This document shows, in pieces, positions 25,585-43,414 of a stretch of 64,000 nt of DNA (within the stretch, counting starts at the first letter, position 1; each line of letters opens with the position of its first letter). Origin of the DNA: Pyrodictiaceae archaeon (GTDB taxonomy: Archaea > Thermoproteota > Thermoprotei_A > Sulfolobales > Pyrodictiaceae). Location of the stretch: assembly GCA_027036135.1 (NCBI GenBank), contig JALVSY010000016.1:160001-224000 (forward strand). Direction: 5' to 3'. Below the pieces are notes generated by a model. The model had not been told where the DNA came from. It saw only the letters and a program-made list of their open reading frames with translations, and searched no databases. The position numbers and the translations under genes are program-made.

Positions 25585-25956
25585 TTATATGATTATCTTT
25601 ACGTTGCTGCCACGCGGGTTCTCTTCTGCTAATTGGAGTATGTGAAGTACGCGGCCTCCAGCGCTAGTTATTTTGCGAACAGCTTCAGCGCTAAATGCTA
25701 TTGCAGCAACAGTTACTGGGTGATCGATGCTACCTGCTCCTAGTACCTTTCCAGGGACTACTACGGTGTCGCCAGCATTTGTGTATCTGTTTATCTTGCT
25801 TACATTAACCTCTACTCGTAGTCTCCTGGGTCTCTCTAGGAGCTCCGCTACGTATCGCCATATTGCTGCCTTGTACTTGTTAGCAGTACTTCTTAGCCGG
25901 CGTATAGTCATTCGCAGCACTATGTTTGTTGGCCCCGTTCTCTTCGTTACCTGCAT
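25585..25956 (-). CDS. rpl18e: 50S ribosomal protein L18e
   Basis: VNVSKINR, VVPGKVLG, NPRGSNVKII. Confidence 0.96.
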   Translation of the reverse strand: MQVTKRTGPTNIVLRMTIRRLRSTANKYKAAIWRYVAELLERPRRLRVEVNVSKINRYTNAGDTVVVPGKVLGAGSIDHPVTVAAIAFSAEAVRKITSAGGRVLHILQLAEENPRGSNVKIII

Positions 25957-25970
25957 GTCTCTTCACACCC

Positions 25971-26822: not shown

Positions 26823-26943
26823 ACCACATACCTCGATAACGTAGAGCTGAGGCCCCGTATAGGGCAATAGGTTATGGAAAATACATTGGAGTGATAAACT
26901 GACCCTGGTTTAGAGAATTGAAACTTAAAATGGCTTCATTATG

Positions 26944-27345
26944 TTAGACGCGGCGTCCTCTTCTACCGCCTGGCCTTCTCGTAGTATCGTGCGGCAGCGG
27001 TGTTACATCTTCTATTCTTCCTATTATGAATCCTGCACGTGCAAGCGCCCTTATTGCTGCCTGTGCACCTGGACCCGGCGTCTTTGGGCCGTGACCACCA
27101 GGTGCTCTGACCTTTATGTGAAGAGCGACTATGCCTTTCTCCATTGCCTCTTGCGCGACACGGCTTGCTGCGAGCATAGCGGCGTAGGGGCTTGGCTTCT
27201 CTCTATCGGCTTTTACCACCATGCCTCCGCTGGCGCGTGCAACTGTCTCTGCACCAGTTAGGTCGGTTATGTGGATTATTGTGTTGTTATAGCTCGAGTA
27301 GATGTGCGCAACTCCCCATTTTATCTCACGAGCCGAGAACGCCAT
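26944..27345 (-). CDS. rps11: 30S ribosomal protein S11
   Basis: [23 protein letters not shown]. Confidence 0.98.
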
Positions 27346-27366
27346 GCAGGCTCACCTCTCATGGAG

Positions 27367-27909
27367 CTAGCCTTGCTCCGGAGCTTGTTGCTCGGAAGTA
27401 GTTGTCTCGGATTCCGTGAGACGCGCTCTTAGTGGACTAGTAGGTGCATAATCTATCAAGTCTTCTTCATGTCTTTTGACAAGGTAGCCTGGGCTACGTA
27501 TCCGTCTCCCAGCTATCGCTATGTGGCCATGTACTATTAGTTGACGGGCCTCGTAGATTGAGCGGGCAAGTCCTTTGCGGTAAACTATTGTTTGTAATCT
27601 TCTCTCGAGGAAGTGCTCAGCTGTTAGGCCTAGGACATCGTCTAGGGTTGCATTCTCGGAGAGGACTCCTAGCTCGTGAAGCTTAGCTAGGAGGAATTTT
27701 GCTTGTTTCTCCCTAGCCTCGGGTGAGAGAGCTAGTAGGCGACGGGCACGGTGCCTAAAGTAGCGTGCAAGAGTCTCTAGTTTCCAGAGCTCCCTCTTGT
27801 TGCGAAGCCCGTACTTGCCTACTAATTCTATCTCTTTTACTAGGCGCTCCTTTATCCATGGATGCTTGGGGCCAACCCACGTCTTTCGAGGCTTCTTGGG
27901 ATCACCCAC
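27367..27909 (-). CDS. rps4: 30S ribosomal protein S4
   Basis: MGDPKK, YGLRNKRE, LERRLQT, ARQLIVHGH. Confidence 0.97.
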   Translation of the reverse strand: MGDPKKPRKTWVGPKHPWIKERLVKEIELVGKYGLRNKRELWKLETLARYFRHRARRLLALSPEAREKQAKFLLAKLHELGVLSENATLDDVLGLTAEHFLERRLQTIVYRKGLARSIYEARQLIVHGHIAIAGRRIRSPGYLVKRHEEDLIDYAPTSPLRARLTESETTTSEQQAPEQG

Positions 27910-27928
27910 AGCTTATCACCTACTCCTC

Positions 27929-28402
27929 TTATCTCCTTCTCTTCACTCCTATCGTCATACCCAGGCGGCCGGTTGTGGCTGTTCTCTGGCCACGTACCTT
28001 GAGGCCTAGTGCGTGGCGTATACCTCTCCAGCTCTTTATTCTCTTCTCCCTCTCTATGTCGCGGCGCACATAGTATATAAGATCGGCTCCTATTAGGTGT
28101 AGGTCCTTGCCAGTCTCGTAGTCCTTCCTCCTATTAAGCATCCATGCAGGAACGCCGACAGCAAGAGGGTTTGAGAGAGCACTCTCTATTTTCTCTACCT
28201 CAGCATCTGTTAGGAATCCTATGCGCTTGTTCGGATCTATTCCCAGTAAGCGGCAGAGAGTAAGGGCTAGGTTTACCCCAACACCCTTAATGAGGGCCAG
28301 GCCATATGGAACCTTTAAATCACCGGGTATATCTGTGCCCGCAATCCTAACAATATACCTGTATTGCTGCTCGCTCAGCCCGTACCACCTCGCTACCCAC
28401 AT
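27929..28402 (-). CDS. rps13: 30S ribosomal protein S13 (true start possibly CTG at 28378)
   Basis: IKGVG, WMLNRRKD, RGIRH, VRGQRT. Confidence 0.97.
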   Translation of the reverse strand: MWVARWYGLSEQQYRYIVRIAGTDIPGDLKVPYGLALIKGVGVNLALTLCRLLGIDPNKRIGFLTDAEVEKIESALSNPLAVGVPAWMLNRRKDYETGKDLHLIGADLIYYVRRDIEREKRIKSWRGIRHALGLKVRGQRTATTGRLGMTIGVKRRR

Positions 28403-28625
28403 CCCGCGGAGAAGCCTATGCAGACCCCCTCTATAAGTGAAGCTGCTCAGCCGCCACGGTAGGCGTCAATGCCCCCTAGGGGCTCGAATGGGCAAGTCCT
28501 CATCACAGCAGCTTTATTCCTACCTATAATAGTGTTTCCCCGCCATTCTTAGATATACTCTTCTTGCATTGCACCCTCTCTGAATGAGAGAATAGGAGAA
28601 GAACGAGTTTGATATATGCATGCTC

Positions 28626-28700
28626 TGGTGCCGCCGCGGGGATTCGAACCCCGGACCGCCCGGTCTTCAGCCGGGCGCTCTCCCGCTGAGCTACGGCGGC
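28626..28700 (-). tRNA. tRNA-Phe(GAA)
   Basis: Full cloverleaf GCCGCCG...CT-GAA-GA...TTCGAAT...ACCA. Confidence 0.96.
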
Positions 28701-28887
28701 ACCCGTGAAGATTACAGCGATATAGGTCCCCCTTCTTAAGACTTGCCGCTTACAAGACCATACTGGTCTCAGCTTTTCCGGCTATCTTCATCCCGTTGGG
28801 GATGGTCAAGAGACCCTCTTCTCAGCACCACCAAGGCAAATATACCCCTGGGAGGGGAGTATAAGACTTCGTAATTGGGCTTGAGGA

Positions 28888-28966
28888 GCGGCGGTCGTCT
28901 AGCCTGGACTAGGACGCCGGCCTTCCAAGCCGGTGATCCCGGGTTCAAATCCCGGCCGCCGCACCA
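28888..28966 (+). tRNA. tRNA-Gly(TCC), integration site of the island
   Basis: Full cloverleaf with CT-TCC-AA loop and encoded CCA. Confidence 0.96.
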
Positions 28967-29300
28967 ATTCCACATACCTTACAGGGACCTTCTCCTGCAA
29001 TTCATACAACTCCTACGTTTCATACATCACATTAAGCTGTGAAACACAAGTATACGAATCCATCCAGAGTATTAGGGTATTAGAAGAGCCCCGTGTTGGC
29101 CTGGTACTCTCAGTCGGACTCAAACATGTTAGACCATAAAACGGGTCTGCGTATTCTGCGCTTACCCTTAGAAGTATGGGAAGCGGGCTATTATGAGGGC
29201 TCTCAGTGTTATAACGTATCACGCTCTGGCATTGTTTGAGCGGCAGCAGGATACCTGGCGACAGCCTCCTACACTATTCTCCGGAAGGTTAGTTTCATGT

Positions 29301-29750
29301 CCCGAGTTCAAGCAGCTAATAGCAGCCACCAAAAGGCTGCGAGCGCTAAGCATACTTTAAGATAACGACATCATAGACTATGGCCCAGCTCTAAAGGTGC
29401 TGACAATCGCCAAGCAAGACGAGCATTCAGAACAAGTGCTATCACACTTCGTGGTGTGAGAGTTCCGTAAAGATCTTAAAGAAGATGTTAGGCATAAGCT
29501 TTTGCAGGCATTAGGCTTGAGTAGAGCTGGGACTTCGGACACTACCTATCTGAGAGGAGGAAGAAGTCCAGAAAGGGTGTTGTGAAGAAGCAAATCACGT
29601 ACTACCACAACCTGCTCGAATAATATCTCGAAGACAGAAAGCTTGCGAAGAGTCTGGTGGAATAGCAGTTACTACCGCAGCTTGTAGGAGGACCGGAAGC
29701 CATCTTAAACAGATACACTCCACTTGAAAAACCTAGAGCTGCTATCTGAG
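29301..29750 (+). pseudogene. Decayed archaeal tyrosine-integrase fragment
   Basis: Manual translation KRLRALSIL*DNDIIDYGPALKVLTIAKQDE...HFVV*EFRKDLK then, after a frameshift, YLSERRKK...ITYYHNLLE*YLEDRKL; resembles (from recall) the N-terminal region of crenarchaeal integrases. Confidence 0.55.
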
Positions 29751-29759
29751 CCATGCTTT

Positions 29760-30420
29760 TCTTTAAGAGTGCAAGAGTAAACTCTTTCTTTGCTCTTGAT
29801 GCTGTCTGGGTAATAATTTGCCCGTCTCTATGTTATTTCAAAAGGTTTTCTAGCTTATTAAGTTATGTCAAAACTCTTTCAAAACATCTAATGGTTTCTT
29901 CATAAACAACATGGTTTTATATACGCTCTATTTATTGAAGTATTTAGCTGCATAGAAACAGCTCTCGGCAATGTATTCCTCACAAGAATGTATGTCTTAA
30001 ACTATTTTATTCTAATTCAGCCTCTAGCCATCTTACATATCTTTGTTTTAAATATTGTCTAAGATTTACTAATATTCTTAATTAACTGTTTGATTAAAGT
30101 AGCTATTCTATGAACGCTTATTCTATTCCTGATGATACATGTATAGATGTATTCCATTAATCCATCATAGTCAAGTCCTAGTTTTCAAGTAAGTGGACAC
30201 ATGCATATAATCGCTACTATATCTCATAGTAATGTTTTTATCTAGCTAAATATTTCTTCATTAAAATTACTGATTTCTTTGTTATCAATGTTATGTTGAA
30301 TACTAAAAATGATTTTGGAGAAGTTTCCTAATTCATTAATACATGCTTCGCAGCTGCTCAATGCCCTCTTTTCTTTGATTTTATTCTACATGTTCTATGT
30401 ATCATACTTTTCTACATCAG
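29760..30420 (-). pseudogene. AT-rich decayed coding remnant, unknown family
   Basis: One minus-strand frame reads protein-like but has several TAG/TGA stops. Confidence 0.3.
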
Positions 30421-30690
30421 GCCAGGATTAAGTACCAGCATTAGGTGAACTGGAGTTCCTAGCAGAAACATATCAGGATTTGAAATTTGAGGCGGGAATG
30501 AGAGAACTATCATTAGGCCTAAGACTTCATAGGGGGAAACTAGTGCCGAGTTGAATCTTCGCAGGCATATAAGCTAAAAACAAAGTGTCACATAGCACTA
30601 GAGTTGTGTGAAAGAGGCAAAGAATGATAATAGGCATGGGTTCAAAGTTCAAAATACATTATCAAGATTAATTGATGTGCCGGCACCCCA

Positions 30691-32277
30691 TTAAGCATCA
30701 AACACCTTCTGGTTACTCCTCGTTAGCCAATATGTTAGCTTAATTTTCTCCAAGCCAAGCGTCATAAGTGAGGATCTATCTTCCATAAATCGATTTATAC
30801 AAATAAGCTTTAGATGAATATCACGTAGTACTTGTGGGCTTAATTCCCTGGCTCTCGAAAGAGTGTTGCGGGCTTCTTCTAATACATGACGCAGCCCAGC
30901 CAAGTACGGGTTGGGGCATCTATAGTGTTGAGGTTGGGGACTACAATGGAGCCTCAGAATGAAATCGTATATATCCTCTCTCCGGAGCCTAAGAGCTAGC
31001 GATCCTCTCGGTTCCCCGGATGACAAGCCGCGACGGGCATATCTAGGGCCTATCGGGATGGCATCAGGGTCAAAACGCTCTAATTCGAGGCTATTTATTA
31101 CACAGTCCAGGCTACTAAGTTCTCTAATTGTATTATCGAGGGTCTCCGCGGCATATTTCGTATTCAAAGTATAGAGAGCTCTGGCGGCATCCCCTAGCAT
31201 CGACCTAATCCTCTCAAGTACTGTAGGCAAGGCACTTACTATTCTATTAAGGCATTTTGAGGAGAGCGTAGTCGCAATATAGTAATATATTTTATAGAAG
31301 TTAAGGAGACTTAGGTCCTCTCCACTTAGGACATCATCTATGTAAAGAAGCATAATACTTGTATTAACGTCCCTCCCAGCAAGACTATATTCTGTTACAA
31401 ATGTTACTATCCCGTTCAAACAAGACTTGGGCTCAAGCTCGTCTGTATTAATGCCCATAAGCGCTAAATCGTTAACATTAATATTGACATCTCTTATAAC
31501 TCTTGGAAGTGTTAAGTCATCATATATATAAGGAGTAAAGCCTGAAGGAACTAGTATGTCAGCTTTGAAAACTGTGATAGTACGTGGCCTAATACTGGTA
31601 TTTCCGAAAGGAAGCTCTACTCTTACACCAGTCCAGCTAGATTGCCTTGAGGTAGTTCGGACCTTTAGACAGATAAGGCCTTGATGCAGCGATATAAATA
31701 TCAGTTTATGTTTTACCTCATTATATTCAACTGTACCTCCATCAAGGAGTGAGGCCAGGGCATACCTAAAGTTCCGGTAGTGTGGCGGCGGCTGTGTAGC
31801 CGCTTGAAGGAGGGCACGGCTTGAAATTCTCTGTGTTTTCGTGCTAGTTTCACGGGCAATTATAGTGTTCGTTAGCGGAGTATATTCGCCGTTTATTTCG
31901 ATAATCTTATCTGTGAGAACTTTTTCGGCAAGAACGGATCGAAGCATATCGTGTTGCTGCCAGCCGATTATATAGGTTTGCATATAGGGTATCTGCATCT
32001 GAAACGGCATGCGCCAATTGCCAAGTACTAGGAACACGTTGCGCATAGCGAGGCTGTGGACAGGAACTTTCGTACCCTTTATGCCTAGCGCATAAGCGCT
32101 ACTAGCAGAGAGAGGCTCTAGGTGAATGCTACATCCGTGAAAGGATACTGGCTTAGCCAGTTTTTCCAATGTGGCTTCCTCAAGTACCCAATTGAGTTGC
32201 TCTCTTTCGATTGCATAGGATAATGCTTTTTTAACTTTTAATCCATGGCTACGTTGACCACTCACATCCACCCGCAC
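30691..32277 (-). CDS. Hypothetical 528-aa protein co-oriented with the methyltransferase
   Basis: Long ORF about 50 bp downstream of the MTase; no motif recognised. Confidence 0.7.
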   Translation of the reverse strand: MRVDVSGQRSHGLKVKKALSYAIEREQLNWVLEEATLEKLAKPVSFHGCSIHLEPLSASSAYALGIKGTKVPVHSLAMRNVFLVLGNWRMPFQMQIPYMQTYIIGWQQHDMLRSVLAEKVLTDKIIEINGEYTPLTNTIIARETSTKTQRISSRALLQAATQPPPHYRNFRYALASLLDGGTVEYNEVKHKLIFISLHQGLICLKVRTTSRQSSWTGVRVELPFGNTSIRPRTITVFKADILVPSGFTPYIYDDLTLPRVIRDVNINVNDLALMGINTDELEPKSCLNGIVTFVTEYSLAGRDVNTSIMLLYIDDVLSGEDLSLLNFYKIYYYIATTLSSKCLNRIVSALPTVLERIRSMLGDAARALYTLNTKYAAETLDNTIRELSSLDCVINSLELERFDPDAIPIGPRYARRGLSSGEPRGSLALRLRREDIYDFILRLHCSPQPQHYRCPNPYLAGLRHVLEEARNTLSRARELSPQVLRDIHLKLICINRFMEDRSSLMTLGLEKIKLTYWLTRSNQKVFDA

Positions 32278-32326
32278 CCGTTCTGGGAGGGTTGGAGAAC
32301 CGTGCTAATATCGACAGAGAATACCC

Positions 32327-33730
32327 CTATAGGGTTAGCTCTCGTCGTCCAATAAGCACTGTCACAGTGTTGCTGCCAGAAGTCTTGCTTCTATCACCTA
32401 TTGGCTTAACGGGCATATTAATAGTTTCCTCGGCTGTAAATCTGTAGCCAGCAGACTCTATTGCGTCGATCATTAATCTAAGCTTGCGTCGTTGCTCCTC
32501 GTGAAGAAAAATGGCTACTGTTGCTCCTCTACGCAGCACTAGGGCTATAGACCTAAATGCGTCATGCAGCTTACGGAGGTACTCGTTAACGCCTAGGCCT
32601 CGACGGGGGTTTACGACGATCTCGTACCTATAGGCATTTAGTGCCCGTTCTCTATCCTCGCTGCGAAGAGCATCAAGCAGCCATGCCAGGTGTAAAAAGC
32701 TAAGCTCATAATACTGTATCTCGTCAAAATGCGGCGGATCAGTTACGAGAGCATCGAAATACTCTCCCGGAAACATTTTGCTAACCTTACTGGCATCAGC
32801 CCATAGTATAGAGGCATTATAGTCTAGCCAGCGTAGCCTAGAGGCAGATCGCTCAGTATAGACAGCCTTGGCCCCGAGGGATTCCCTGGCTACACGCATA
32901 ACTCGGCTCCTAAACCTTAGAAACGGATTATACTCTGCATGGCGGCGCGGTACCCAGTAGCTATTAATAGCCCATGCGCCAGTACCGCGGCGCGCCATAC
33001 GGCTAGCATTATACGCTATAGCAGCCAAGGATAACCAAAGCAACGATCCGACAGACCCCTTTACGCTATACCCGCGCCTGCGGAGGAAACTGGCGATACC
33101 AGCCATCCCCGCTAGCATAAGGGGTGAGTAAAGCTCGTGTACATACTGGACATTCCTTCGCTTGTCGAAGTCAGCTTTATCAGAATAGCGGAGGGGCAGC
33201 CTAGGATACGGGTCTAAAACATCATCGATTAGATCGTCATAGTTAACCTCAACACTACACCCGGATATAGTGTAGACAATACACCTACGCTCGTCCTCGT
33301 CGCACTCACGGCGAAGAATAAGGCTACGAGCACCTCTACACTTAACCGAGAAGAGTTCCTTCCACCGAACCCGCTCAACCCTGCCATAACGGATCACGCG
33401 CAGCTTAACATTCTCAAAGGCCTTCCAAAAAGCACTTGTGGGCTTCCTAACTCTGCCAACAAGAACACGTGATATAAGCCAAGCGTAAAAATTAACGTCA
33501 AGCATTACAACCTTATAGCCCCAAGAGAGTAGGTGCCTACCTATGCTGCCAGCACCAGCAAAGGGATCAAGAACAAGCTCTCCACCTTTCAATAAGCCTA
33601 ATAATATGCCACGGAGACTCTCTACCGCTACACCCGCCTTGCGCCCCCAGTAGCGTATAGCAGAACGCGTTATAGCCACACCCACTAGCCCCCATGCGTG
33701 CAAGGAGCATGCTGTGGACTCTATACCCAT
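32327..33730 (-). CDS. Amino (m6A/m4C) DNA methyltransferase
   Basis: Motif I DPFAGAGS near the N-terminus; motif IV TDPPHFDEIQYYELS. Confidence 0.85.
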   Translation of the reverse strand: MGIESTACSLHAWGLVGVAITRSAIRYWGRKAGVAVESLRGILLGLLKGGELVLDPFAGAGSIGRHLLSWGYKVVMLDVNFYAWLISRVLVGRVRKPTSAFWKAFENVKLRVIRYGRVERVRWKELFSVKCRGARSLILRRECDEDERRCIVYTISGCSVEVNYDDLIDDVLDPYPRLPLRYSDKADFDKRRNVQYVHELYSPLMLAGMAGIASFLRRRGYSVKGSVGSLLWLSLAAIAYNASRMARRGTGAWAINSYWVPRRHAEYNPFLRFRSRVMRVARESLGAKAVYTERSASRLRWLDYNASILWADASKVSKMFPGEYFDALVTDPPHFDEIQYYELSFLHLAWLLDALRSEDRERALNAYRYEIVVNPRRGLGVNEYLRKLHDAFRSIALVLRRGATVAIFLHEEQRRKLRLMIDAIESAGYRFTAEETINMPVKPIGDRSKTSGSNTVTVLIGRRELTL

Positions 33731-33861
33731 AGCCTAGCTACTGATAATGAACAGCTATATATGAATGCTGCATGCATGCAAAGGGTTAGATGGTAATACC
33801 GTAAAGTTGTGCCACAAAAATACGGTACATCACAGTATAATACCAGTGATACCCAGAGGGT

Positions 33862-36800
33862 ATGGCATTATCTAGGCGATATTTATTCAAACCTGGCCCG
33901 AAAAATATAGCTCAAAAAGGAGTCAACAATTTGCAACGTGTAAAAACGTTCAACAGCGATTATGACCTTGTACGTGTATACAAGGCCTTACTAAGACACG
34001 AAGTCGAACAGCTGCGGAAAAAGGCGAATTATTATCTCGACGGAAACACCGTAGACAAGATCGTATCGTCGGTCACGCAGAATGTAAAAACAATAGTCAA
34101 CCAACTCCTAGATAAAGGCCTGCTTATTCGCATAGGCGACAAGTACACAACAATGCATGCAGAACTCATCCGGAAAATAACTGACCTATCACTAAGGCCA
34201 GGAGAAATCCAAGTCTACGAGTGGCGTCTCTTGGAGCCCCGTGAAACGCCATTACCAAACTTTGCGGCATACCGATACGATGATACAGAGGGTGAAATCG
34301 CAGGCTACCTAGAGAGAAATAATGTAGATCTCGGTGTAGCTAGGAAGGCTGCAAGAGCACTTGTCAATGGACTAAAAGCTTTGGGAAGCGGGCTCTCTAG
34401 CTACCAGTATAAAATGATAAGACATGCCCTCCAGCATCAATGGCCAATAACGCTTGTACTTTCAGCGCCTACAGGCTCCGGTAAAACTCTCATATTCACC
34501 ATAATAGCGCTAGCCTATACATTAGCAAAGAAACTCACCCGTGATCCCAGAAGTAGAGAACCCTATGTCCTCCTCGTTTATCCTCGAAAAGCTCTAGCAA
34601 CAGACCAGCTATACAGACTCATAAAGTTACTATATCATGTGAATAAGGAGCTAGAAAAAGCTGGCCTAGGGGATGCTAAGATAGACGTGGGCATTCTCGA
34701 TGGAGATTCCCTACTAACAGCAACGCATGCAATAGAAGAAGGTAGAAAGTATGTCCGCGGAGTTCAGCAGATTGAGACAAGTAATGGTAATCTGGAATGT
34801 GTATACAGCACTGAAGACGACACTGTTGAATGCAAAGTTAATGGTCAGCCTCTAGGCTACAGGCTTGTAACAGACCTACGTTGCGATATGCTCAGACGAC
34901 CACCGTCAATACTAATTACAAATGTATGGATGCTAGAGGAACACATAATAAGATCTAAGTCCAACGCAAGGCTATGCAATACACAGCTAGGTATCGATGA
35001 CATATTATTCAATGCAAGGCTACTAGTACTAGACGAAGCACACGTTTATAAAGGCTTTCAGCAAGTTGCAATAGCCTCTCTAGTACATAGGTACGTAGTT
35101 GAACTTGCACGCAGAATAGTTGGTATGAGATTAGAGGAATTCAAAGCAAATAATAAGAATGCTGCAGAACTTATAGTGGGATCTCTAATTAATTCGGGAG
35201 ACTTTGCTATAATTCTAAGCTCGGCAACAATAACCACGGTAGACGAGGGTTGTCTAAGCACTAAGAATCCTGGCATTAAAGCTAAGTTTGAGAAAGACAT
35301 AGAGAATTTTGTAAGGTATACAATATCCCCCGGAGTTTACCGACTCATTGGTGACCGTAGGGCAATAGTATCTGAGAACTATGACTGCATAGAAACCAAT
35401 AGCAAAGACACAAGACTAACCATAGTATTAATTCTAGCTCCTAAGCCGGGTGTTTCAGCGTCAACACTACAGCAAGAGGTAATACTAACGACACTAGCCT
35501 GGTCAACAGCGTTTAAAGCTAAAACAAGGCGTCCAATAAAGTTCATAAGCTTCTTCGATAATAAGGATGAACTCTCGAGAGTGTACCGCTGGATAACAGA
35601 TATCATAATAAGAGAGCGCTGCGAGCACTGTGACCACCTGGCAATACCAGACTACAATAGCACACGTCCGCAGTGCGGAGTAAAACCAACGCTGCAAGCC
35701 AAGGCGGCATGGAAAAAATACATTGCATCAGTAATCGCGAAGCTAAACGTAAATATTAACAGCTTACAGCAAGTACCGAGGCTACATAATATAGCAGTAG
35801 AGGACATCATAAACGCGTTCTACAATAACCACGAATTCTGGGTAACATTTCCCCTTAACGAAAACATAAAAACAGCAGCCGACTTAGTAAGACAGATTGT
35901 CAATGTTGCTGGTGAAGTCTGCAAGGGCAGGGAGATAATAGGAGTCCACCATGGAGACCTAGATACCACAACACGGCAAGAAGTAGAACGTAAGTTCAAA
36001 AAGGGAGAGCTACTGGGCCTACTTTCAACACAAACCTTAGAGCTAGGCATAGACATAAACGACGTTGGAGTAGTAATACAGTTTAAACCACCACGTAAAG
36101 CAGAAAACTTTGTACAAAGAATTGGTAGAGCTGGCAGAAGTCGTGCAAGCTTCTATACAACACTAGGCATATTAGTCCTAAGCAGTATAGATACTGCATA
36201 CCTAATAGAAGACCATGCAAGAGAACAACTATTCCATGTCAGACCTGAGAAACCCCCCTACTCCAACTATAATATGGTGCTAGCAACTACATTACGCTAC
36301 ATACTCTACGTTCTATCAAAGTATAATGACGAAACACAACGACTATTAGCAAAGGCTATGTCACGTTATAACATAGCTATAGATAAGTTTGCTGATATAC
36401 AAAAGATACTAACAAGACGGCAAAGTCTACGTCAAGCATTAGCAGATTTACACGATATTATAGAAAGCCAAGAATTTAGGGACACCGTTGTTGATCTACT
36501 AGTGACGATGTATCAAGATAGCGACGTAACGAGAGACATGGTGCTAGGGGCCTATAACACCATACTAGCTGACATAGATAGTATATTACGAGGAGCAGAA
36601 GTAAAGGTAGAAGATGTTTACCAGATACTTGATTATCTTCGAGAAAGGGTTATAGAGCTAATTAATAAGTGCATAGAGCGAATGAAGAGTGATATAGCTA
36701 AACTTAGCAAAAAAGTCAATAAAATATATTATGTAAAAATCTTAGAGAGAGGTATTGAAGAGCAACGGCGAGCAATAAATAACCTGCTTGATGAACTCGC

Positions 36801-37032
36801 TAGAAAAATTGAGGGACTCGTTGAAAGTTGTAATAAGGCACGAATAGGCTGTGAGGATATAAACTATGTAGTTAGTAGCCTTAAGGAACTTTTAGAAACA
36901 AGTTTCGAACATCCCATACAAGTTATAGAGCACCTTGATAAGTGTAGAGAGATTAAAGTAGACGAAATAAATAAGGAGTATCCTAGTTGTAGAAAAATTT
37001 TATCGTTTGTTGAAAGTTTATGTACGTACTAA
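33862..37032 (+). CDS. SF2 DEAH-box helicase (DrmA/MrfA-like)
   Basis: APTGSGKT, YPRKAL, DEAH, SAT, HHGDL, TLELGIDI, QRIGRAGR. Confidence 0.93.
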   Translation: MALSRRYLFKPGPKNIAQKGVNNLQRVKTFNSDYDLVRVYKALLRHEVEQLRKKANYYLDGNTVDKIVSSVTQNVKTIVNQLLDKGLLIRIGDKYTTMHAELIRKITDLSLRPGEIQVYEWRLLEPRETPLPNFAAYRYDDTEGEIAGYLERNNVDLGVARKAARALVNGLKALGSGLSSYQYKMIRHALQHQWPITLVLSAPTGSGKTLIFTIIALAYTLAKKLTRDPRSREPYVLLVYPRKALATDQLYRLIKLLYHVNKELEKAGLGDAKIDVGILDGDSLLTATHAIEEGRKYVRGVQQIETSNGNLECVYSTEDDTVECKVNGQPLGYRLVTDLRCDMLRRPPSILITNVWMLEEHIIRSKSNARLCNTQLGIDDILFNARLLVLDEAHVYKGFQQVAIASLVHRYVVELARRIVGMRLEEFKANNKNAAELIVGSLINSGDFAIILSSATITTVDEGCLSTKNPGIKAKFEKDIENFVRYTISPGVYRLIGDRRAIVSENYDCIETNSKDTRLTIVLILAPKPGVSASTLQQEVILTTLAWSTAFKAKTRRPIKFISFFDNKDELSRVYRWITDIIIRERCEHCDHLAIPDYNSTRPQCGVKPTLQAKAAWKKYIASVIAKLNVNINSLQQVPRLHNIAVEDIINAFYNNHEFWVTFPLNENIKTAADLVRQIVNVAGEVCKGREIIGVHHGDLDTTTRQEVERKFKKGELLGLLSTQTLELGIDINDVGVVIQFKPPRKAENFVQRIGRAGRSRASFYTTLGILVLSSIDTAYLIEDHAREQLFHVRPEKPPYSNYNMVLATTLRYILYVLSKYNDETQRLLAKAMSRYNIAIDKFADIQKILTRRQSLRQALADLHDIIESQEFRDTVVDLLVTMYQDSDVTRDMVLGAYNTILADIDSILRGAEVKVEDVYQILDYLRERVIELINKCIERMKSDIAKLSKKVNKIYYVKILERGIEEQRRAINNLLDELARKIEGLVESCNKARIGCEDINYVVSSLKELLETSFEHPIQVIEHLDKCREIKVDEINKEYPSCRKILSFVESLCTY

Positions 37033-37048
37033 CTAAATCTAATTGTAG

Positions 37049-39451
37049 GTGAGTACGATGACTATGACAGCTCGAAGGGGAAGGAAAAAGAGACATCGTC
37101 GTGGCCAGCCTTTCCTCTATAGAGTATTGAGTGTCCTCGGTAGGCATTATAGTATTGCTGTAGACGGCAGTAAATACGTAGCTGGAAGCTATGGTTACAA
37201 CATTACGATAGAGCGTTATAAAAATCCATGGGATGGACCAAGAGAGGAGGCTGTGGTACTACTGCCAACATCGATAGTTGCACGGTATAGGCCGTTCAAC
37301 TTTATAGTAAGGGAAAATAACATTTATTTTGTACCGCCAAGGTTTTATCCGTGGCCTAACCGTGGGTTATACGTTCTAGGTGGAATTATCTCTAAAAGAG
37401 ATACAAAGATCGAAAACAACACTCTACGCATAAGGCCACGTATTGTTGTGGCTTATCTCAATAAACCTGTGCATTACATATTCTTCGGTACCCGATCGGA
37501 ACTCGAGGAATATGCGCATGAGATGCTTGTAAAGACTGCTTACGACTTAGAGCCCGTTAAGACCAGTATCGCGACGTTAAATAGGCTCTTCATGCTTAGA
37601 AGAATTAGAACATATAATGTAAACATTAACACAAATGATAATATCGCTATAATGTATATGCTCGTGAGTATAGATGAGGCTGGGCAAGCCAGACTCGCGG
37701 GTATTACAATGGTTAAGGTGGGCCCCTATCCGGGCTCTAGGCTTGTTGGCGTCATCGCTGATCGCCAAGCTCCCTATGCCACCTTAAGACTTGTAGCTGC
37801 AGGATTCACATTAGACGAACTTTCAAGCATGTTCCATGGGATCTTAGACCTTGATGACATACTGATAGATCTTTCGATATCCGGTCAAAATATAAACAGG
37901 TTGCGTAAGGAAGCATGGGCGTTAAGGATCTTAAAGGCGCTGAGGAATAGCAAGTATGTATTGAGGTTTAGCGATTTAAGAGACTATAAAGTTCAGATAG
38001 GCAGTAGTAGTGGCATGTACTTTAATGTTGAAGGAATTAGCATTAATGATCTGGGTGAGGCTTATGAAGTCGGTCATTTGCTGCGAGCAATAGATTTAGT
38101 AGCTACGCTTCACACTTTCACCGAGACTATTCGTGGTAGATCAAGTACCCTAGTTAAGGCACACTTATCGCCTAGCAATGGCAGTATCGCGGTAGACTAC
38201 GTAGATGGTGTAGATGCTATACTAAGATTCGCATCCTTTATGCTGACGTATCGAAGTAACTTCGTGGTACCACAGTTGGTTTATCCCCATGCATATATGG
38301 ATATAGCAATTAGTAGTAGCAAGGCACTAAGGTTCAGACTCGAGAATATTGACGAAAAAGTACTCACGGCAGTAGCGTTTACGGCTTCGGCAAAGAATCC
38401 AGAGTTTGCAGATATAATGGCTCTACGGCTAGCACTACAGAAACACTTTTACCCGCCAGGCTTGCAGGGCTCAGCTCCACTGCCTTGCATTAGTAAACGA
38501 AGCGAAGAACTACACGGATACGTAAACTTTCTAGACCTAGGCCTTCTGCTTGCACGGAAAATCCTATGTACACACACAACAAGCGTGAAAGACAAGAAGA
38601 GATTAGGCTGTAATCAGATTAATAACTATTATGCCCGCATTGAGAATATACTAAAGCTCGCAGAAGCGCTACGAAACGGTGATCTCGAGGAAATACGTAA
38701 TAGAATTAGCGAATGTCGTGCGAAAAGCTTCCTTAGATACAGCCTCGCCTGGAGCCTAGCCTATGCTATCCTTAAGGGTCTAGCCCAGGTTCAGGGTGGA
38801 GCATTACTAGATTCAGTAATACTTGCCTGCAGAAGAACAGGACAGGACTGTGACTCCGACTGTGAGGTACTTGTAGTTGAAGCTGGTGAGCAGGGCCTAG
38901 GCTTTATCGACGCTATTAAGGCAGACCCAAATCTACTCCTTAAAGCAGCCTCAGTAACGAAGAAAATCATAGACCAGTGTAACCCCGCAAACATGATGAA
39001 ACGAAAACAATCTACGATAAATACATTGGCTAAAACCCATAGTGAAGTACAAGAGCTTGATAAATGCTTCTATGAGTTCCTCGATGAGCTAAAGAGGATA
39101 AATATAAATAGACCGTCAATCGACATAGCTAGAGTCGCGTTCCACAAGTATCTAGAGCTTTGTAGTGATCCAAAGTACCAGCATCTATGCAGCCCAGCAT
39201 GCGTATGGACAGCTAGAAAAATAATATCACGTGAAAGTCAAGCCTCAGAATTCCTACGATCACTACTTCCCGAAATTTACGGTGCATATATACCAAGCTG
39301 TTGGGATGGCTGTCTGATCTGTATCCATGTCTCGCAAAGGGTGTTAGCCAGCGGGTTAACAAATCATGAGCAGATGATATATGTCTCGAAGACGCTAGCT
39401 CACATACTACTATCAGCGCTTTTAACTGGTAAGGGAGGCGGCAAGCAATGA
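37049..39451 (+). CDS. DUF1998-like (DrmB-like) Zn-binding protein
   Basis: SLAWSLAYAILKGL...VLVVEAGEQGLGF and C-terminal CWDGCLIC; likely start ATG 37058 after GGTGA. Confidence 0.7.
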   Translation: MSTMTMTARRGRKKRHRRGQPFLYRVLSVLGRHYSIAVDGSKYVAGSYGYNITIERYKNPWDGPREEAVVLLPTSIVARYRPFNFIVRENNIYFVPPRFYPWPNRGLYVLGGIISKRDTKIENNTLRIRPRIVVAYLNKPVHYIFFGTRSELEEYAHEMLVKTAYDLEPVKTSIATLNRLFMLRRIRTYNVNINTNDNIAIMYMLVSIDEAGQARLAGITMVKVGPYPGSRLVGVIADRQAPYATLRLVAAGFTLDELSSMFHGILDLDDILIDLSISGQNINRLRKEAWALRILKALRNSKYVLRFSDLRDYKVQIGSSSGMYFNVEGISINDLGEAYEVGHLLRAIDLVATLHTFTETIRGRSSTLVKAHLSPSNGSIAVDYVDGVDAILRFASFMLTYRSNFVVPQLVYPHAYMDIAISSSKALRFRLENIDEKVLTAVAFTASAKNPEFADIMALRLALQKHFYPPGLQGSAPLPCISKRSEELHGYVNFLDLGLLLARKILCTHTTSVKDKKRLGCNQINNYYARIENILKLAEALRNGDLEEIRNRISECRAKSFLRYSLAWSLAYAILKGLAQVQGGALLDSVILACRRTGQDCDSDCEVLVVEAGEQGLGFIDAIKADPNLLLKAASVTKKIIDQCNPANMMKRKQSTINTLAKTHSEVQELDKCFYEFLDELKRININRPSIDIARVAFHKYLELCSDPKYQHLCSPACVWTARKIISRESQASEFLRSLLPEIYGAYIPSCWDGCLICIHVSQRVLASGLTNHEQMIYVSKTLAHILLSALLTGKGGGKQ

Positions 39452-39915
39452 CAAACACCAGAATACAAAGGTACACCGGCAAAAACCTTTACACAAAACT
39501 CGTGAAAGAGCTGGAAAAAGCTAGAAAATTAATAATAGCAGTTACACCATTCATAGACCGAGATAGCGTAGACAAGCTAACAAAGTTGGCAGCAGGAGGA
39601 ACAAGAGTCTACATAGTGACCTTAAATGATCCCCGAAAAACAATGAAGACGCTACAGTACATAGCAGAAAAAGCGAGCGAAGTTCAAAACCTATGGTGCT
39701 ACGCTTTACGCAGCATACATGCAAAGATATACATAGTAGACCTCGAAAAAATGCTAACAGGCTCCGTAAACCTGGTAAAGACGGCTAATAAAAACATAGA
39801 GAACCTTGAGGTAATAGACGATCCCGATTATATAGCCATAGAAGCAGTAAAACTAATTTCAACAGTGCTACGAGAGGCAAAATCCTGCAAGGAAGCAGCC
39901 GCGGAGAAACAATAA
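39448..39915 (+). CDS. Stand-alone phospholipase D-family nuclease (DrmC-like)
   Basis: TPF, HAKIYIVD (HKD), TGSVNL, NLE; ATGA overlap with the upstream gene. Confidence 0.88.
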   Translation: MTNTRIQRYTGKNLYTKLVKELEKARKLIIAVTPFIDRDSVDKLTKLAAGGTRVYIVTLNDPRKTMKTLQYIAEKASEVQNLWCYALRSIHAKIYIVDLEKMLTGSVNLVKTANKNIENLEVIDDPDYIAIEAVKLISTVLREAKSCKEAAAEKQ

Positions 39916-40147
39916 CGGTACCACAACTTTATATAGCATACCTTGAGAAAGCTAAATCTCGGCATGTACCGTTTTCCACTTGTCAGCTACCATATGTGGT
40001 GGGGAACAAGCAGGGTTAGTTTAACGATTATGAGACAATTCCATTATAACAGTGATAGCGTTGCATAGAGTTTATAAGGCTAATGTTCTACAATTACGTG
40101 TTTATGTCACCTAGTATAGCATAAAAACTATCTTTTCTACAACATAT

Positions 40148-40175
40148 GTGATCCCGGGTTCAAATCCTGGCCGCC
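40148..40175 (+). repeat. att copy of the tRNA-Gly 3' part
   Basis: GTGATCCCGGGTTCAAATCCTGGCCGCC, 27/28 identical to 28933-28960. Confidence 0.88.
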
Positions 40176-40312
40176 ACCCAGCTTCTTCCCTTACCGTCTT
40201 ACACGCTGAGATTTCTCTAGAGCTAACTTCAATTATCGGTGCCGGGGTCCTTAGCTTAGTTACTCCTACCCCTCTATATCATTATCGAGGCAATTCCTTA
40301 GCTGGGGTATCT

Positions 40313-41728
40313 GTGAAGTTAATACCACATCAGCTCCGTCGTCGAAGAGTTCTTTGCGTAAGGCAGTATTCGCGTAGCTTCTATAGCGTAGTAGATAGTT
40401 ATTACAAACTATTGGATAATCTTGGCGCTAGATATGTTTATGAATGTAGGAAGGGAGTATGCTACTCCTACATAGTTGTGAATAATAACTCCTCCGTAGC
40501 TCTTCTCGAAGCCCCAGGGCTCGTCATAGAAGAGGCGAAAAAGCCGCAGGACTGCATATCGGATAACGTGATGCCGTTACCGCTATCCGAGGCCGGGTTT
40601 CTCGATACGGGTCTAGTTGAGCCGCCGAGTGGCGAGTGTTTTGTGCTTGGCTTTGTTGGGTCGAAGAGGCTTTGCATAGAGATTGATGATGTGTGGCGAC
40701 ATATATGGGTTCTTGGATCAACTGGTTCTGGTAAGACTCATACAGCTGCTAGACTAGCTCGCTGTCTATCAGGTAAGGGATTAGGTATCCTTGTTCTCGA
40801 CTGGCATGGGGAGTATGCACGGTTGCTCAGAGAGATAGGCGTTGAGTATAAGCTGCTAAGCTATCCCTCGGCGCCGAGCCTGCCTTTAGTGAATACTGAT
40901 ATGCCCTTAGAGGTCTCGATAGATATTCTTGAGCACGTGCTTAGTCTCAGCCCGTTTCAGACATCGATACTCTCTCTTTTGCTAGCGCTAGTCTCGGGTG
41001 TACTAACGCCCGAGGAGCTTAAACGTACCGAGAACGCGCTCGGCTCAACTATGTTTAATACTATTAGTAAGGTTTTTGAGCGGAAGCCTATTAGCCGGGG
41101 AAGCAGCCTCCGCGATCTCTACACACTACTTCTCAGCGCCTACGAGGAGGTCTCGACACAGATAACGCGCTCTGAGAGGGAGATTTGGTCCGCGCTTATC
41201 CGTAGAATACAGATATTCATAACGAGTGGGTACGAGGACCTTTTCAAAGTCTATGACTCATTCCCGGACACGATAAGGGATCCGAGAGGAGTAGTAGTTG
41301 TTGACTTATCGTCGATTCGTTCCCTTAGAGCTAGGAGACTTTACGCATACTTCCTCCTCTATGGGCTCTATTTCTCAAAGCTAGGACACGCTGCTTCGCC
41401 GGGGCTTGTAGTCGTTATTGAAGAGGCCCATAACCTCCTCGACCTGGATATCGTTCCTGTAATGCTACAGGAGGCCAGGAAGTATAAACTCGGACTAATA
41501 ATAGTAACCCATACGCCATCCCTCTTACCAGTGGTTGCACAAACTAATCTAAACACGCTGATAATCCATAGGATGATGGGGGAGAAGGACAAGGAGTTCC
41601 TTAGCCACGTTATAGGTGTTAGAGAGCTAAGTGAGATAGCCTCTTCCCTAAGACCTGGCGAGGCAATAGTCTTTACTAGGCAAGGCCCCGTAATAGCCAC
41701 AATAAGGCTGGACGCCGAGTGCACATAG
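40313..41728 (+). CDS. HerA/DUF87 family ATPase
   Basis: RHIWVLGSTGSGKT, LDWHGEY, VVIEEAHN, EARKY; start moved downstream of the att repeat. Confidence 0.85.
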   Translation: MKLIPHQLRRRRVLCVRQYSRSFYSVVDSYYKLLDNLGARYVYECRKGVCYSYIVVNNNSSVALLEAPGLVIEEAKKPQDCISDNVMPLPLSEAGFLDTGLVEPPSGECFVLGFVGSKRLCIEIDDVWRHIWVLGSTGSGKTHTAARLARCLSGKGLGILVLDWHGEYARLLREIGVEYKLLSYPSAPSLPLVNTDMPLEVSIDILEHVLSLSPFQTSILSLLLALVSGVLTPEELKRTENALGSTMFNTISKVFERKPISRGSSLRDLYTLLLSAYEEVSTQITRSEREIWSALIRRIQIFITSGYEDLFKVYDSFPDTIRDPRGVVVVDLSSIRSLRARRLYAYFLLYGLYFSKLGHAASPGLVVVIEEAHNLLDLDIVPVMLQEARKYKLGLIIVTHTPSLLPVVAQTNLNTLIIHRMMGEKDKEFLSHVIGVRELSEIASSLRPGEAIVFTRQGPVIATIRLDAECT

Positions 41729-41808
41729 TGCCTGAGGCGTATTATCTTTAAACTAGATCTCTGCTGCTAAAGAGAGTAAGTGGAAGGAAAGAGAGTGGGT
41801 ATCCTCCC

Positions 41809-42363
41809 TTGAGCCTAGAGAACCTAACCGAGTCAAAGAAGCGGATCCTGGAACTCCTAGCCGAGAAGAAGGAGGCAGACATACAGACAATAGCAACCAC
41901 CATGGGGCTTCGCTCATCAACTGTTAGGAAGTACCTAGCAGAGCTAGAGCGCAGCGGCCTCGTAGAACGAATGGGCTCAGTTGCAAAGATAACTGAGAAA
42001 GCACTACAACTCCTTGGAGTAGAGGCAGCCAAGGCAGAGAAGCCAAGCGAGGAACAACCAGTAGAGGAGGCCGTGACGCCTAAGCCGAGCGAGCAGCTCA
42101 TAGAACCCTTCTACTTCCTAGTCAAGGGCTCAGTAGTACCACTAAAGATTAAGAGCAAGCGCCAACTAGCAGCCGCAATAGTCTATGGCCTCGTAGAGCC
42201 AGAAGAACTTAGCTACGTTCTGCGAACAGGGTACCTCACAACATGGCTCCGAACCGCTCTGAGAGAAGAGGAGCTAGCAAAGAAACTAGAGGAGCTAAAA
42301 GGCTTAGAACCACCACAACTCTACGACGAGGCCACGAAAATACTAAGAGAACACCTAGACTAG
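41809..42363 (+). CDS. Winged-helix DNA-binding protein
   Basis: IATTMGLRSSTVRKYLAELERSGLVE. Confidence 0.78.
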   Translation: MSLENLTESKKRILELLAEKKEADIQTIATTMGLRSSTVRKYLAELERSGLVERMGSVAKITEKALQLLGVEAAKAEKPSEEQPVEEAVTPKPSEQLIEPFYFLVKGSVVPLKIKSKRQLAAAIVYGLVEPEELSYVLRTGYLTTWLRTALREEELAKKLEELKGLEPPQLYDEATKILREHLD

Positions 42364-42532
42364 GGAAGTGCACCGATAAACCGATGCCTAAAACAACATA
42401 CAGACTTTTTTAATGTGATTCATCCCAGCCTCAATGATATTCTTGTGTTAAGCAATTATCAATAAGTCTACATTCAGCGTTCTTGACGCAAGCCTCTCCA
42501 GCCCAAGGCGTGAGAACCACAGGGATCAAGGT

Positions 42533-43414
42533 ATGTGGTGCGGGGGGTGGGATTTGAACCCACGCAGGCCTACGCCAGCGGGTCCTCAGCCCGCCCCCTT
42601 TGACCAGACACGTTCAACTCCCTTGGGTAGCTATGTTTCAATCCCTAATGGGTTGCAGCAGGATGAGGGCTCTGATACTGGCGGGGTTGCTGCAACTCTG
42701 CAGGGGTTCCTCGAGTGGTGCAAGAGGCATGCTAGTGATAAGACGTGTACCCAGTACGCTAGAAGGGTTGAGGAGATACTCTCTGGCAGGGCGGGGCCCG
42801 ATAAGAGCAGGTGGCACATCACTGCCTGGAAGCGTTTCAACAAGTGGCTGTGCGAGGAGAGGGGTAGGAGCGAGGCCTGCGAGGAGTATAGGCGGTGGAA
42901 GAGCAGGAGCAGTAGGCCAGACTTCTACGTGCCCAGCCTGGGAGAGGTCAAGGCGGCGCTGGTCTCCGCGGCGGAGCCTTACCGCACCGTGTACAGGGTG
43001 CTAGTGGAGAGCGGGCTAAGACTAACAGAGGCCACTAGGCTGCTCAGAGAGATAGAGGGGCTAAGACTGGTTAGGTTAGACGGGTTCGTGCGGATAGAGC
43101 TCGCCTGGGAACGGGGCACAAAGAAGGCCTTCTGGGCCTACCTGGTCGAGAAGCCGCCCAGGGTCGACGTATCAGCGGAGCAGGTCTCAAAGTACGCTGA
43201 CAGGGAAGACCTACTGCCACCAAAGTATATGAGAAAGTTCGTGGCCACCCAGCTAGCCAACCTAGGCTGCGACATGGACACAATAGACTTCATACAGGGC
43301 AGGACACCGACAAGGATACTAACAAAGCACTACGCAGACCTAACCGCGCGAGCAGACAAGTGCTACAAGCGCTACGCGGAATGGCTACGAAACAGCCTAC
43401 TAGGCTCCCTGTAG
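42533..43414 (+). CDS. SSV1-type integrase, C-terminal (catalytic) fragment
   Basis: Starts in the att repeat; ESGLR, RGTKKAF, KYMRKF, FIQGR, HY. Confidence 0.92.
   Translation: MWCGGWDLNPRRPTPAGPQPAPFDQTRSTPLGSYVSIPNGLQQDEGSDTGGVAATLQGFLEWCKRHASDKTCTQYARRVEEILSGRAGPDKSRWHITAWKRFNKWLCEERGRSEACEEYRRWKSRSSRPDFYVPSLGEVKAALVSAAEPYRTVYRVLVESGLRLTEATRLLREIEGLRLVRLDGFVRIELAWERGTKKAFWAYLVEKPPRVDVSAEQVSKYADREDLLPPKYMRKFVATQLANLGCDMDTIDFIQGRTPTRILTKHYADLTARADKCYKRYAEWLRNSLLGSL
42534..42605. repeat. att site, copy of the tRNA-Leu 3' portion
   Basis: Identical to 59454-59525. Confidence 0.95.

Follow-up and report, generated by a model that had tools for sequence, protein, structure and literature searches.

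A DISARM-like gene set with a split YprA-type helicase on a tRNA-Gly island of a Pyrodictiaceae archaeon

The 64,000-nucleotide window analyzed here (GenBank assembly GCA_027036135.1, contig JALVSY010000016.1, positions 160,001 to 224,000) belongs to a Pyrodictiaceae archaeon and carries, on an 11.2-kb island at a tRNA-Gly gene, five open reading frames (ORFs) arranged in two divergent units. The rightward unit on the plus strand consists of a superfamily 2 (SF2) DEAH helicase of the YprA/MrfA family (33862-37032, 1056 amino acids (aa)), a DrmB-like DUF1998 protein (37049-39451, 800 aa) and a nuclease of the phospholipase D (PLD) family with a single HKD motif (39448-39915, 155 aa). The leftward unit on the minus strand consists of a putative amino DNA methyltransferase (MTase; 32327-33730, 467 aa) and an ORFan of 528 aa (30691-32277), which lies 49 bp downstream of the MTase gene. 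Between the two units there are 131 bp (33731-33861), in which A/T-rich TATA-like boxes can be read directly about 25 bp ahead of both start codons; these boxes may be promoters. The rightward genes are tightly packed, with 16 bp between the stop codon of the helicase and the GTG start codon of the 800-aa ORF and a 4-bp overlap (ATGA) between the stop of the latter and the start of the PLD ORF. A first-pass annotation, made from the letters of the DNA, had described these genes as a DISARM-like locus and possibly a new crenarchaeal variant. The five ORFs are located where it had placed them, all motifs that it quoted are present in the translations, and the 16-bp spacing was correctly given.

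The helicase contains the motifs APTGSGKT, DEAH and QRIGRAGR and is built from RecA1-RecA2 followed by a helical C-terminal part. Pfam matches were obtained to DEAD (4e-13) and Helicase_C (1.5e-17). Among the PADLOC models DpdJ scored best (3.9e-32, 109 bits), followed by DruE (3e-22) and by a partial match to DrmA (5.4e-16, 56 bits). The NCBIfam model of DpdJ gave 6e-28 and 97 bits as compared to a cut-off of 800. From 14 helicase sequences, in which the residues of Walker A, DEAH and motif VI are invariant, a profile (A7) was built. Searched against the PDB, this profile retrieved YprA/MrfA (6znp) in first place (3e-42), a 2108-aa DEAD/DEAH helicase (9tu7_Y) with 1.9e-36 and Lhr with 2.4e-34.

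The 800-aa protein, which carries the motifs GLGF and CWDGCLIC, did not match any Pfam, PADLOC or NCBIfam model; Pfam was searched to E 10, also with the last 200 residues, and gave nothing useful. A word-based protein search returned the protein itself only. Among 1.84 billion representatives the family comprises eight proteins at E <=0.001, including the 800-aa protein itself, a 145-aa fragment and one doubtful match (1.9e-4) in a 4267-aa protein. In an alignment of eight family members (A1), residues E611, G616 and G618 as well as C751-W-D-x-C755-x-x-C758 are invariant, the window protein reading C751-W-D-G-C755-x-x-C758. Two more cysteines, C714 and C718, are found only in the subfamily of the window protein, and the A5 subfamily has a fourth cysteine after the motif. 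A PDB sequence search with profile A1 produced only designed helical proteins (E >=0.16).

The structure of the 800-aa protein was modelled on alignment A1 with AlphaFold2 (AF2), with a predicted local distance difference test score (pLDDT) of 69 overall and mostly of 70-95 past residue 500. Compared by VIA-align with 48,161 representative PDB chains, the model matched exactly two chains with Z >=8, the third-best chain reaching Z 5.6. These two were MrfA (6znp_A; Z 11.1, root-mean-square deviation 4.5 A, 188 residues aligned), where model residues 335-792 lie on chain residues 493-749, i.e. the DUF1998 end, and DrmB (7s9w_B; Z 10.6, root-mean-square deviation 4.2 A, 244 residues aligned). The same two chains were at the top in a further structure comparison. 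Residues ~335-795 are thus predicted to adopt the OB-CON-DUF1998 (MZB) fold, in agreement with the DUF1998 assignment of the first-pass annotation; the first ~330 residues are beta-rich and of uncertain fold. Together, the 1056-aa and 800-aa proteins make up a YprA/MrfA-type helicase that is split in two, the former containing the RecA motor and the latter the OB-CON-DUF1998 "canopy", as in DrmA and DrmB. A split MrfA/DruE-like fusion had initially been offered as an alternative to the DISARM assignment; profile A7 and the existence of one-chain relatives now bear it out. Measured against the YprA/MrfA family as delimited by Bell et al. 2025 (bioRxiv 10.1101/2025.09.15.676423), the locus has a YprA-related SF2 core and, in the next gene, the OB-CON-DUF1998 part by fold, which is fused to the helicase in the metagenome protein P0021.

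The PLD nuclease contains one HKD motif (HAKxxxxD...GSxN), of which H91, K93 and D98 together with G105 and N108 are invariant in nine sequences, and has no N-terminal extension. It matches Pfam PLDc_2 (3.3e-12) as well as the PADLOC models DrmC (1.1e-9) and DpdK (1.7e-6); in NCBIfam, DISARM_DrmC_I reached 19 bits against a cut-off of 133 and DpdK 27 bits (3.4e-6) against 100. A complex of the nuclease with residues 335-800 of the 800-aa protein was modelled in three runs with ipSAE values of 0.87, 0.87 and 0.86, compared to 0.02 for the best of three controls. In the calibration, which is only roughly valid for a model built, like this one, on shallow self-made alignments, 116 of 157 solved complexes and 2 of 215 mismatched pairs attained the mark used. 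The runs had at least 97% of their contacts in common, and the pLDDT of the partner was 90. On the nuclease the contact residues are mostly 125-142; residue 99, beside D98, is among them, whereas H91, K93, D98 and N108 are not. The model supports binding of the nuclease to the canopy half.

In the MTase, motif I (DPFAGAGS) is followed by motif IV (TDPPHF). Pfam reported N6_N4_Mtase (7.8e-5, under the cut-off) and the D12 class (3e-3), and PADLOC reported MTase_II (1.4e-10) and a weak, partial PglX match (1.3e-8). The 11 aligned members of this MTase family (A6) share an N-terminal RYWGRK, motif I in the form DPFGGxG and, ~270 residues further on, T-D-P-P-[F/Y/H]; D55, F57, G59 and G61 as well as T330-D-P-P333 are invariant. 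Histidine occupies the last of these motif IV positions in the window MTase and in locus L004. A motif I that precedes motif IV with a long insert in between represents the alpha-type order, and DPP[FYH] suggests an exocyclic-amino methyltransferase. Because of its DPPH and FxGxG motifs, the enzyme is predicted to be an amino (N6A- or N4C-type) DNA methyltransferase and not a C5-MTase, with adenine-N6 as the likelier target.

The genes are located on an element that was inserted into a tRNA gene. The integration target, tRNA-Gly(TCC) (28888-28966, plus strand; identified by ARAGORN, Rfam tRNA 63 bits), contributes its 3' 28 nucleotides (28933-28960, plus strand; repeat D3) as the attL core, and a repeat search revealed a copy of this 3' end, 27 of 28 positions identical, at 40148-40175 (plus strand), which forms attR and the right border of the island. 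The 28-nt repeat has two matches in the window as compared to none expected from 100 shuffles. In the same-genus genome G635 the sequence corresponding to window positions 25000-28967 (95% identity) is contiguous with that corresponding to 40148-42605 (92%), the two pieces overlapping by 35 bp. Therefore, the 11.2 kb between the repeats were inserted into tRNA-Gly at its 3' end. Both flanks are chromosomal, because G635 has both of them; on the left there is an operon of ribosomal proteins with an RNA polymerase subunit (Rpb3/RpoA-type), on the right a HerA/FtsK-type ATPase and a winged-helix regulator. The G+C content (GC) of the island (28968-40147) is 0.428 versus 0.495 in the left and 0.523 in the right flank. 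The tRNA-Gly island of the first-pass annotation is thereby confirmed.

Between the tRNA gene and the 528-aa ORF the island has an AT-rich stretch of 1.7 kb (28968-30690, GC 0.39) with no ORF of at least 80 aa. No integrase remnant was recognized in 28961-30700, where the full set of ORF proteins from the related loci collected up to then produced no tblastn match under E 0.02, and the only Rfam families in 28000-41000 are two tRNAs. In contigs from three metagenome runs of two studies the island is present at the same depth as its flanks, and long contig pieces of run X3, from the second study, carry it without differences. A fourth metagenome run contains a relative of the flanks that is 90-95% alike and almost nothing of the island. 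A clean joint between 28967 and 40148, as excision would leave it, was not found in the metagenome contigs; a long joint from 28963 to 38289 in run X4 was rejected as a sign of excision, as its shorter side of 22 nt is too short to trust.

Related loci were compared by scoring their ORFs with hidden Markov models derived from our own alignments, after L048-L051 (repeats) and L007 and L054 (fragments) had been set aside. Of 22 distinct helicase loci, 21 contain an A1- or A5-positive gene as the immediate follower of the helicase gene, 18 an MTase of the A6 family and 15 an accessory gene of one of two families termed A3 and A4. Usually the accessory gene comes first, followed by helicase, DUF1998-PLD and MTase. 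Profile A6 at E <=1e-10 detects 69 of 351 genomes of the class, mostly through motif-only matches in proteins of ~900-1000 aa. A full-length match (E <=1e-80) is found in 13 of these 351 genomes, and in 13 of 13 the helicase family is located beside it. The co-occurrence of helicase, DUF1998 protein, PLD and MTase proposed by the first-pass annotation is thus seen in many other loci, and a dedicated family of predicted amino-MTases travels with the helicase, DUF1998 and PLD genes. The neighborhood of some relatives includes defence and mobile genes, namely in L023 (5991-7793 and 2319-5120, both minus strand), L005 (2263-3696, minus strand; 11237-12703, plus strand) and L004 (806-1801, plus strand). 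These encode an AbiO/Nhi-like protein of 600 aa, a 933-aa MTase_II/HmaB-like methylase, a HEPN protein (Swt1-like), a KAP-family nucleoside triphosphatase and a tyrosine integrase.

The partition of the helicase and nuclease domains varies between the loci. In most relatives (L004, L005, L006, L023, L029, L030, L052, L053, L055 and L059) the DUF1998 and PLD parts form one predicted protein, and in the metagenome proteins P0021 (1641 aa) and P0023 (1593 aa) helicase and PLD domains are found in a single chain. The part of P0021 between helicase and PLD matches A1 with an hhalign probability of 99.8% (E 1e-28). As judged from these sequences, the small PLD is fused to the canopy half in most relatives or joined to the helicase in one chain, and the family appears to exist in one-, two- and three-gene forms. 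The window protein and its five closest representatives (P0002, P0003, P0005-P0007) end ahead of the PLD domain; because these five do so as well, the three-gene form is a trait of a small subfamily and not a fresh frameshift. With seven relatives among the 1.84 billion representatives, the window subtype, in which DUF1998 protein and PLD are separate, is the rarest form. A second subtype (L056, L057, L058, L028, L031, L032 and L034) has a longer helicase (1111-1280 aa) followed by a protein of 580-734 aa with no recognizable PLD or MZB domain, usually with an MTase close by. Its follower proteins show a weak A1 or A5 match in L031, L032 and L034 (~E 2e-6) and in L028 (E 3e-5 in the genome search), and no A1 or A5 match in L056-L058.

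The distribution of the family is patchy. In a sample of 401 genomes of the phylum, three have the A1 family; it was also detected in 13 of the 351 genomes of the class, including G000 itself, but in none of 28 genomes of its own family and none of four of its own genus. Five contigs of one metagenome assembly carry it, too. Named records include Metallosphaera yellowstonensis MK1, Sulfolobaceae and Stygiolobus, and records from metagenome-assembled genomes (MAGs) are labelled Desulfurococcaceae, Jordarchaeales, Bathyarchaeia and Thermoproteota; all records so far are from archaea. Profile A2 retrieved no relatives from the genome contigs or the viral contigs searched.

The fifth gene has no counterpart in these loci. 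For the 528-aa protein no family was found in Pfam (to E 10), PADLOC or NCBIfam, and among 7999 scored candidates from 5.8 billion protein clusters only the protein itself was recovered. There was no credible match in the 351 genomes; six non-self matches (E 9e-4 to 9e-3) were discarded as noise, being short frames, five of them with stop codons. The ESM Atlas search yielded no usable match, and the models of the protein were unusable (pLDDT 0.34 in ESM Atlas, 33.7 with single-sequence AF2). The accessory genes of the relatives fall into the families A3 (418-512 aa, linked through L034) and A4 (524-541 aa). A comparison of A3, A4 and the 528-aa protein by hhalign gave a probability of <1% for each pair, Pfam and PADLOC assign no family to any of the three, and an Atlas search with an A3 member was also empty. 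As a co-occurring component, which the first-pass annotation had assumed it to be, the 528-aa protein did not hold up: it is found nowhere else, and the relatives have unrelated genes of 418-541 aa in this place. Nevertheless, we take the ORF to be a real gene of the island, chance being a very unlikely origin, because it has 528 codons in DNA of 44% GC and follows the MTase gene after 49 bp. Our guess is that its product may be a lineage-specific accessory subunit that replaces the unrelated 418-541-aa genes of the relatives.

How do these components compare with the known systems? Bravo et al. 2022 describe DISARM as consisting of the DrmA helicase, the DUF1998 protein DrmB, the PLD protein DrmC and a methyltransferase, plus auxiliary genes. 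At the island, an SF2 DEAH helicase is present, to which DrmA models match in part and with scores below those of DpdJ and DruE. A separate gene beside it encodes the DUF1998 protein, whose fold is DrmB-like (Z 10.6) and which is recognized as such by fold only, as neither DrmB nor Pfam MZB matches its sequence. A PLD-family nuclease follows, identified by PLDc_2, PADLOC DrmC and the invariant HKD residues, and a DNA methyltransferase is part of the locus. Class 1 DISARM is defined by the SNF2 protein DrmD and the adenine MTase DrmMI, class 2 by DrmE and the C5-MTase DrmMII. In contrast, the island has no SNF2/DrmD gene, its 528-aa protein is matched by no family model including DrmE, and its MTase is a putative amino-MTase of another family, with motif I before motif IV, DPP[FYH] and only a weak PglX match. 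Furthermore, the DUF1998 protein is extended at its N-terminus by ~330 residues, the PLD is a small protein that relatives carry as part of the DUF1998 protein, the DrmA model is weak and the DrmB model without match on the island proteins, and the group is so far restricted to archaea.

With Dpd the island shares DpdJ as the best sequence model for its helicase and a small PLD which, like DpdK, lacks a four-helix bundle. However, the scores are far under the family cut-offs (DpdJ 97 versus 800 bits, DpdK 27 versus 100), the helicase is split, the cysteine cluster is retained in three invariant residues and a methyltransferase takes the place of the 7-deazaguanine genes; according to Bell et al. 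2025, canonical Dpd has lost the DUF1998 cysteine cluster. Models of DpdA-C did not match the five island proteins, which were the only ones scanned, the rest of the genome not being searched. For the helicase core and the CON/DUF1998 part, no PDB chain matched better in sequence and fold than the repair helicase MrfA/YprA (6znp). MrfA is a single chain of ~750 aa that acts in repair together with the exonuclease MrfB, whereas on the mobile island the protein is split (1056 and 800 aa) and linked with a PLD and an MTase. Druantia DruE and ARMADA ArmC likewise belong to the YprA family and combine the helicase with a DUF1998 module and, C-terminally, a nuclease; the PADLOC DruE match is 3e-22, and 9tu7_Y is the second-best PDB match of profile A7. 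Models of DruA-D/H or BrxHII-like proteins had no match among the five island proteins and PglX had only the partial one on the MTase; a BrxA-like insert in the helicase defines the Druantia/ARMADA lineage in Bell et al. 2025.

Overall, the locus is DISARM-like in its anatomy, with a split YprA helicase, a PLD and a methyltransferase, and it lies outside the definitions of the DISARM classes, Dpd, Druantia and ARMADA. The first-pass annotation was right in that no SNF2 and no C5-MTase is present and that, by the PADLOC and NCBIfam models, neither a DISARM class nor another named system fits. Its term "DISARM-like" stands only in the broad sense; with PADLOC, NCBIfam and profile A7 the helicase sequence is nearer to DpdJ and MrfA than to DrmA. 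The proposed new variant is upheld insofar as no named definition applies, but its novelty is smaller than was assumed, because Table S1 of Bell et al. 2025 (10.1101/2025.09.15.676423) already labels helicases of Sulfolobales and Thermoprotei, which may be of this family, as "Dpd-like helicase" or "DISARM-like helicase". A full-text literature search revealed no title or abstract describing this operon. We read the locus as best filed within the DISARM/Dpd branch of YprA-helicase defence systems, in an archaeal group that is uncharacterized. DISARM is, according to Bell et al. 2025, the sole branch in which helicase and OB-CON-DUF1998 are consistently separate genes.

We therefore consider it probable, at roughly 70%, that the 11.2-kb tRNA-Gly island encodes a defence system of the restriction-modification type that is built, like DISARM and Dpd, around a YprA helicase and is distantly related to both. 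Beyond domain identity and gene linkage, defence function and mechanism are what we infer. The catalytic motifs of MTase, PLD and helicase are all intact. A mobile and patchy distribution typical of defence genes, as seen in the empty site of G635, the 13 of 351 class genomes and the defence-gene neighbors, supports this assignment, as do the fold of the 800-aa protein, the helicase family, the gene fusions, the co-occurrence of the genes and the complex model with the PLD. The methyltransferase would mark the host DNA, given its DPP[FYH] motif most likely with N6-methyladenine (m6A). The helicase-DUF1998 complex would load on and translocate along unmarked or structurally foreign DNA, as DrmAB does, and would deliver the PLD nuclease to it. 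Since a single HKD unit needs a second one to form an active site, cutting would probably require two complexes. The 528-aa ORFan is probably co-transcribed with the MTase and, as a guess, may be an accessory subunit serving as sensor, specificity factor or regulator. For comparison, Bravo et al. 2022 describe a trigger loop that keeps DrmAB autoinhibited and 5'-overhang DNA as the activator of DrmAB.

Several observations weigh against this assignment. The sequence models do not put the parts into DISARM: DrmA (7s9v_A) is not among the best 60 PDB matches of the helicase profile A7, no PADLOC DrmB model matches the 800-aa protein, and Pfam MZB was matched in one of eight family members with E 0.15. 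Of the expected four-cysteine zinc cluster only three cysteines (C751, C755 and C758) are invariant in the eight sequences. The AF2 model of the 800-aa protein was built on eight sequences and is uncertain in its N-terminal 330 residues, and Foldseek taken by itself was weak, with E 5.7e-3 for MrfA (6znp_A), 0.063 for DrmB (7s9v_B) and no match at E <=0.001. To these the shallow alignments of the complex model have to be added. Adjacency alone ties the 528-aa gene, which has no relative, to the system. Because it has no integrase and contains the 1.7-kb gene-free stretch, the island may be an immobilized and possibly decaying element. Finally, DrmC is dispensable against some phages according to Bravo et al. 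2022, so that the nuclease need not be the effector.

Among the alternatives, the one that survives best, though unlikely, is that of two independent units, the leftward MTase and 528-aa genes forming an orphan or separate modification unit and the rightward unit being blind to methylation or directed against modified DNA in a Type IV-like manner. The divergent transcription is in line with this, as are the 4 of 22 loci that have no A6 MTase within the DNA fetched and the restriction of phages without methylation sites reported for DISARM in Bravo et al. 2022. On the other hand, each of the 13 genomes with a full-length A6 MTase has it beside the helicase family, and most loci have both in the same operon. 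Slightly less likely is a fossil, i.e. an immobilized island with genes that are intact but out of use; the missing integrase, the gene-free 1.7 kb and the mismatch in one att copy would agree with it, but the five ORFs are open with intact catalytic motifs, and the island is found without differences in the long contig pieces of run X3 from a second study. A shade less probable again is an MrfAB-like DNA-repair module, in which a YprA-type helicase and a nuclease would remove damage instead of acting in defence. MrfA is indeed the top PDB sequence match and the top fold match. However, a dedicated MTase is tightly linked (13 of 13 genomes with a full-length match), the island is an insertion absent from close relatives and patchily distributed (13 of 351 genomes), the nuclease is a PLD and not an MrfB-type exonuclease, and the neighbors in related loci are defence genes. 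Least likely of all, and by our estimate very improbable, is a regular DISARM system of class 1 or 2 that escapes annotation tools through divergence alone: the core of helicase, separate DUF1998 protein, PLD and MTase is the same, and the order unknown gene, helicase, DUF1998-PLD, MTase in the relatives presumably resembles the class 2 order drmE-A-B-C-M, but there is no SNF2 (DrmD) in the island, no PADLOC or NCBIfam model including DrmE on the 528-aa protein, an amino-MTase with a partial PglX match (1.3e-8) in place of a C5-MTase, and a helicase scoring 109 bits with DpdJ and 56 with DrmA. In addition, the 155-aa PLD leaves no room for the N-terminal four-helix bundle that section 8 of Bell et al. 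2025 describes for most DrmC proteins and finds lacking in Dpd-associated PLD proteins.

Within the preferred assignment to YprA-helicase defence, a more specific proposal can be made only tentatively, at somewhat less than even odds. The locus and its ~20 relatives might represent a distinct archaeal class of such systems, found in Thermoproteota and reaching Asgard and Bathyarchaeia MAGs. Its marks would be the dedicated amino-MTase (RYWGRK...DPFGG...TDPP[FYH]), a PLD physically joined to the DUF1998 canopy by fusion, by docking or within a single helicase-DUF1998-PLD chain, and an accessory gene with rapid turnover that would set what is sensed, with three unrelated families in the accessory slot, one of them the 528-aa ORFan.

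Some further features of the window surround the island. The HerA/FtsK-type ATPase gene (40148-41728, plus strand), for which CedD, a DNA-translocating ATPase, is the best NCBIfam model (3.7e-46, 158 bits, cut-off 600), is chromosomal and lies outside the island; its ORF starts inside the tRNA-Gly repeat, and the true start is probably further downstream. At 42533-43414 (plus strand) there is an intact "archaeal phage integrase" of 293 aa (PF16795, 4e-39). Its 5' end overlaps an apparent 3' part of a tRNA on the minus strand (42536-42605), which ARAGORN does not call. This ~70-nt stretch has many copies of 93-100% identity in all four same-genus genomes, and the similarity to G635 ends there. 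A DUF3800 gene follows at 44320-45114, and the GC dips at 44-47 kb. Integrase, DUF3800 gene and GC dip suggest that a second element is integrated 2.4 kb past the island. On the other side, the tRNA-Phe gene (28626-28700, minus strand) is 37 letters longer in contigs of run X1, with the addition at 28664-28668; this may be an intron-bearing copy or that of a different strain. The first 6000 nucleotides of the window (1-6000) have a GC of 0.43-0.49, under the 0.50-0.53 that follows.

A YprA-type helicase is central to DISARM, Dpd, Druantia and ARMADA alike, systems whose way of finding foreign DNA is not yet clear. All experimental work named in Bell et al. 2025 and Bravo et al. 2022 concerns bacterial systems. 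On present evidence the value of the locus described here is comparative, as it is a divergent relative of known systems and not a new principle; it would enlarge the small number of defence systems known from hyperthermophilic archaea. The archaeal group shows the motor in three-, two- and one-gene splits, a nuclease attached to the canopy and a swappable accessory gene, and is thus a natural series in which the importance of individual contacts and the role of the accessory subunit can be addressed.

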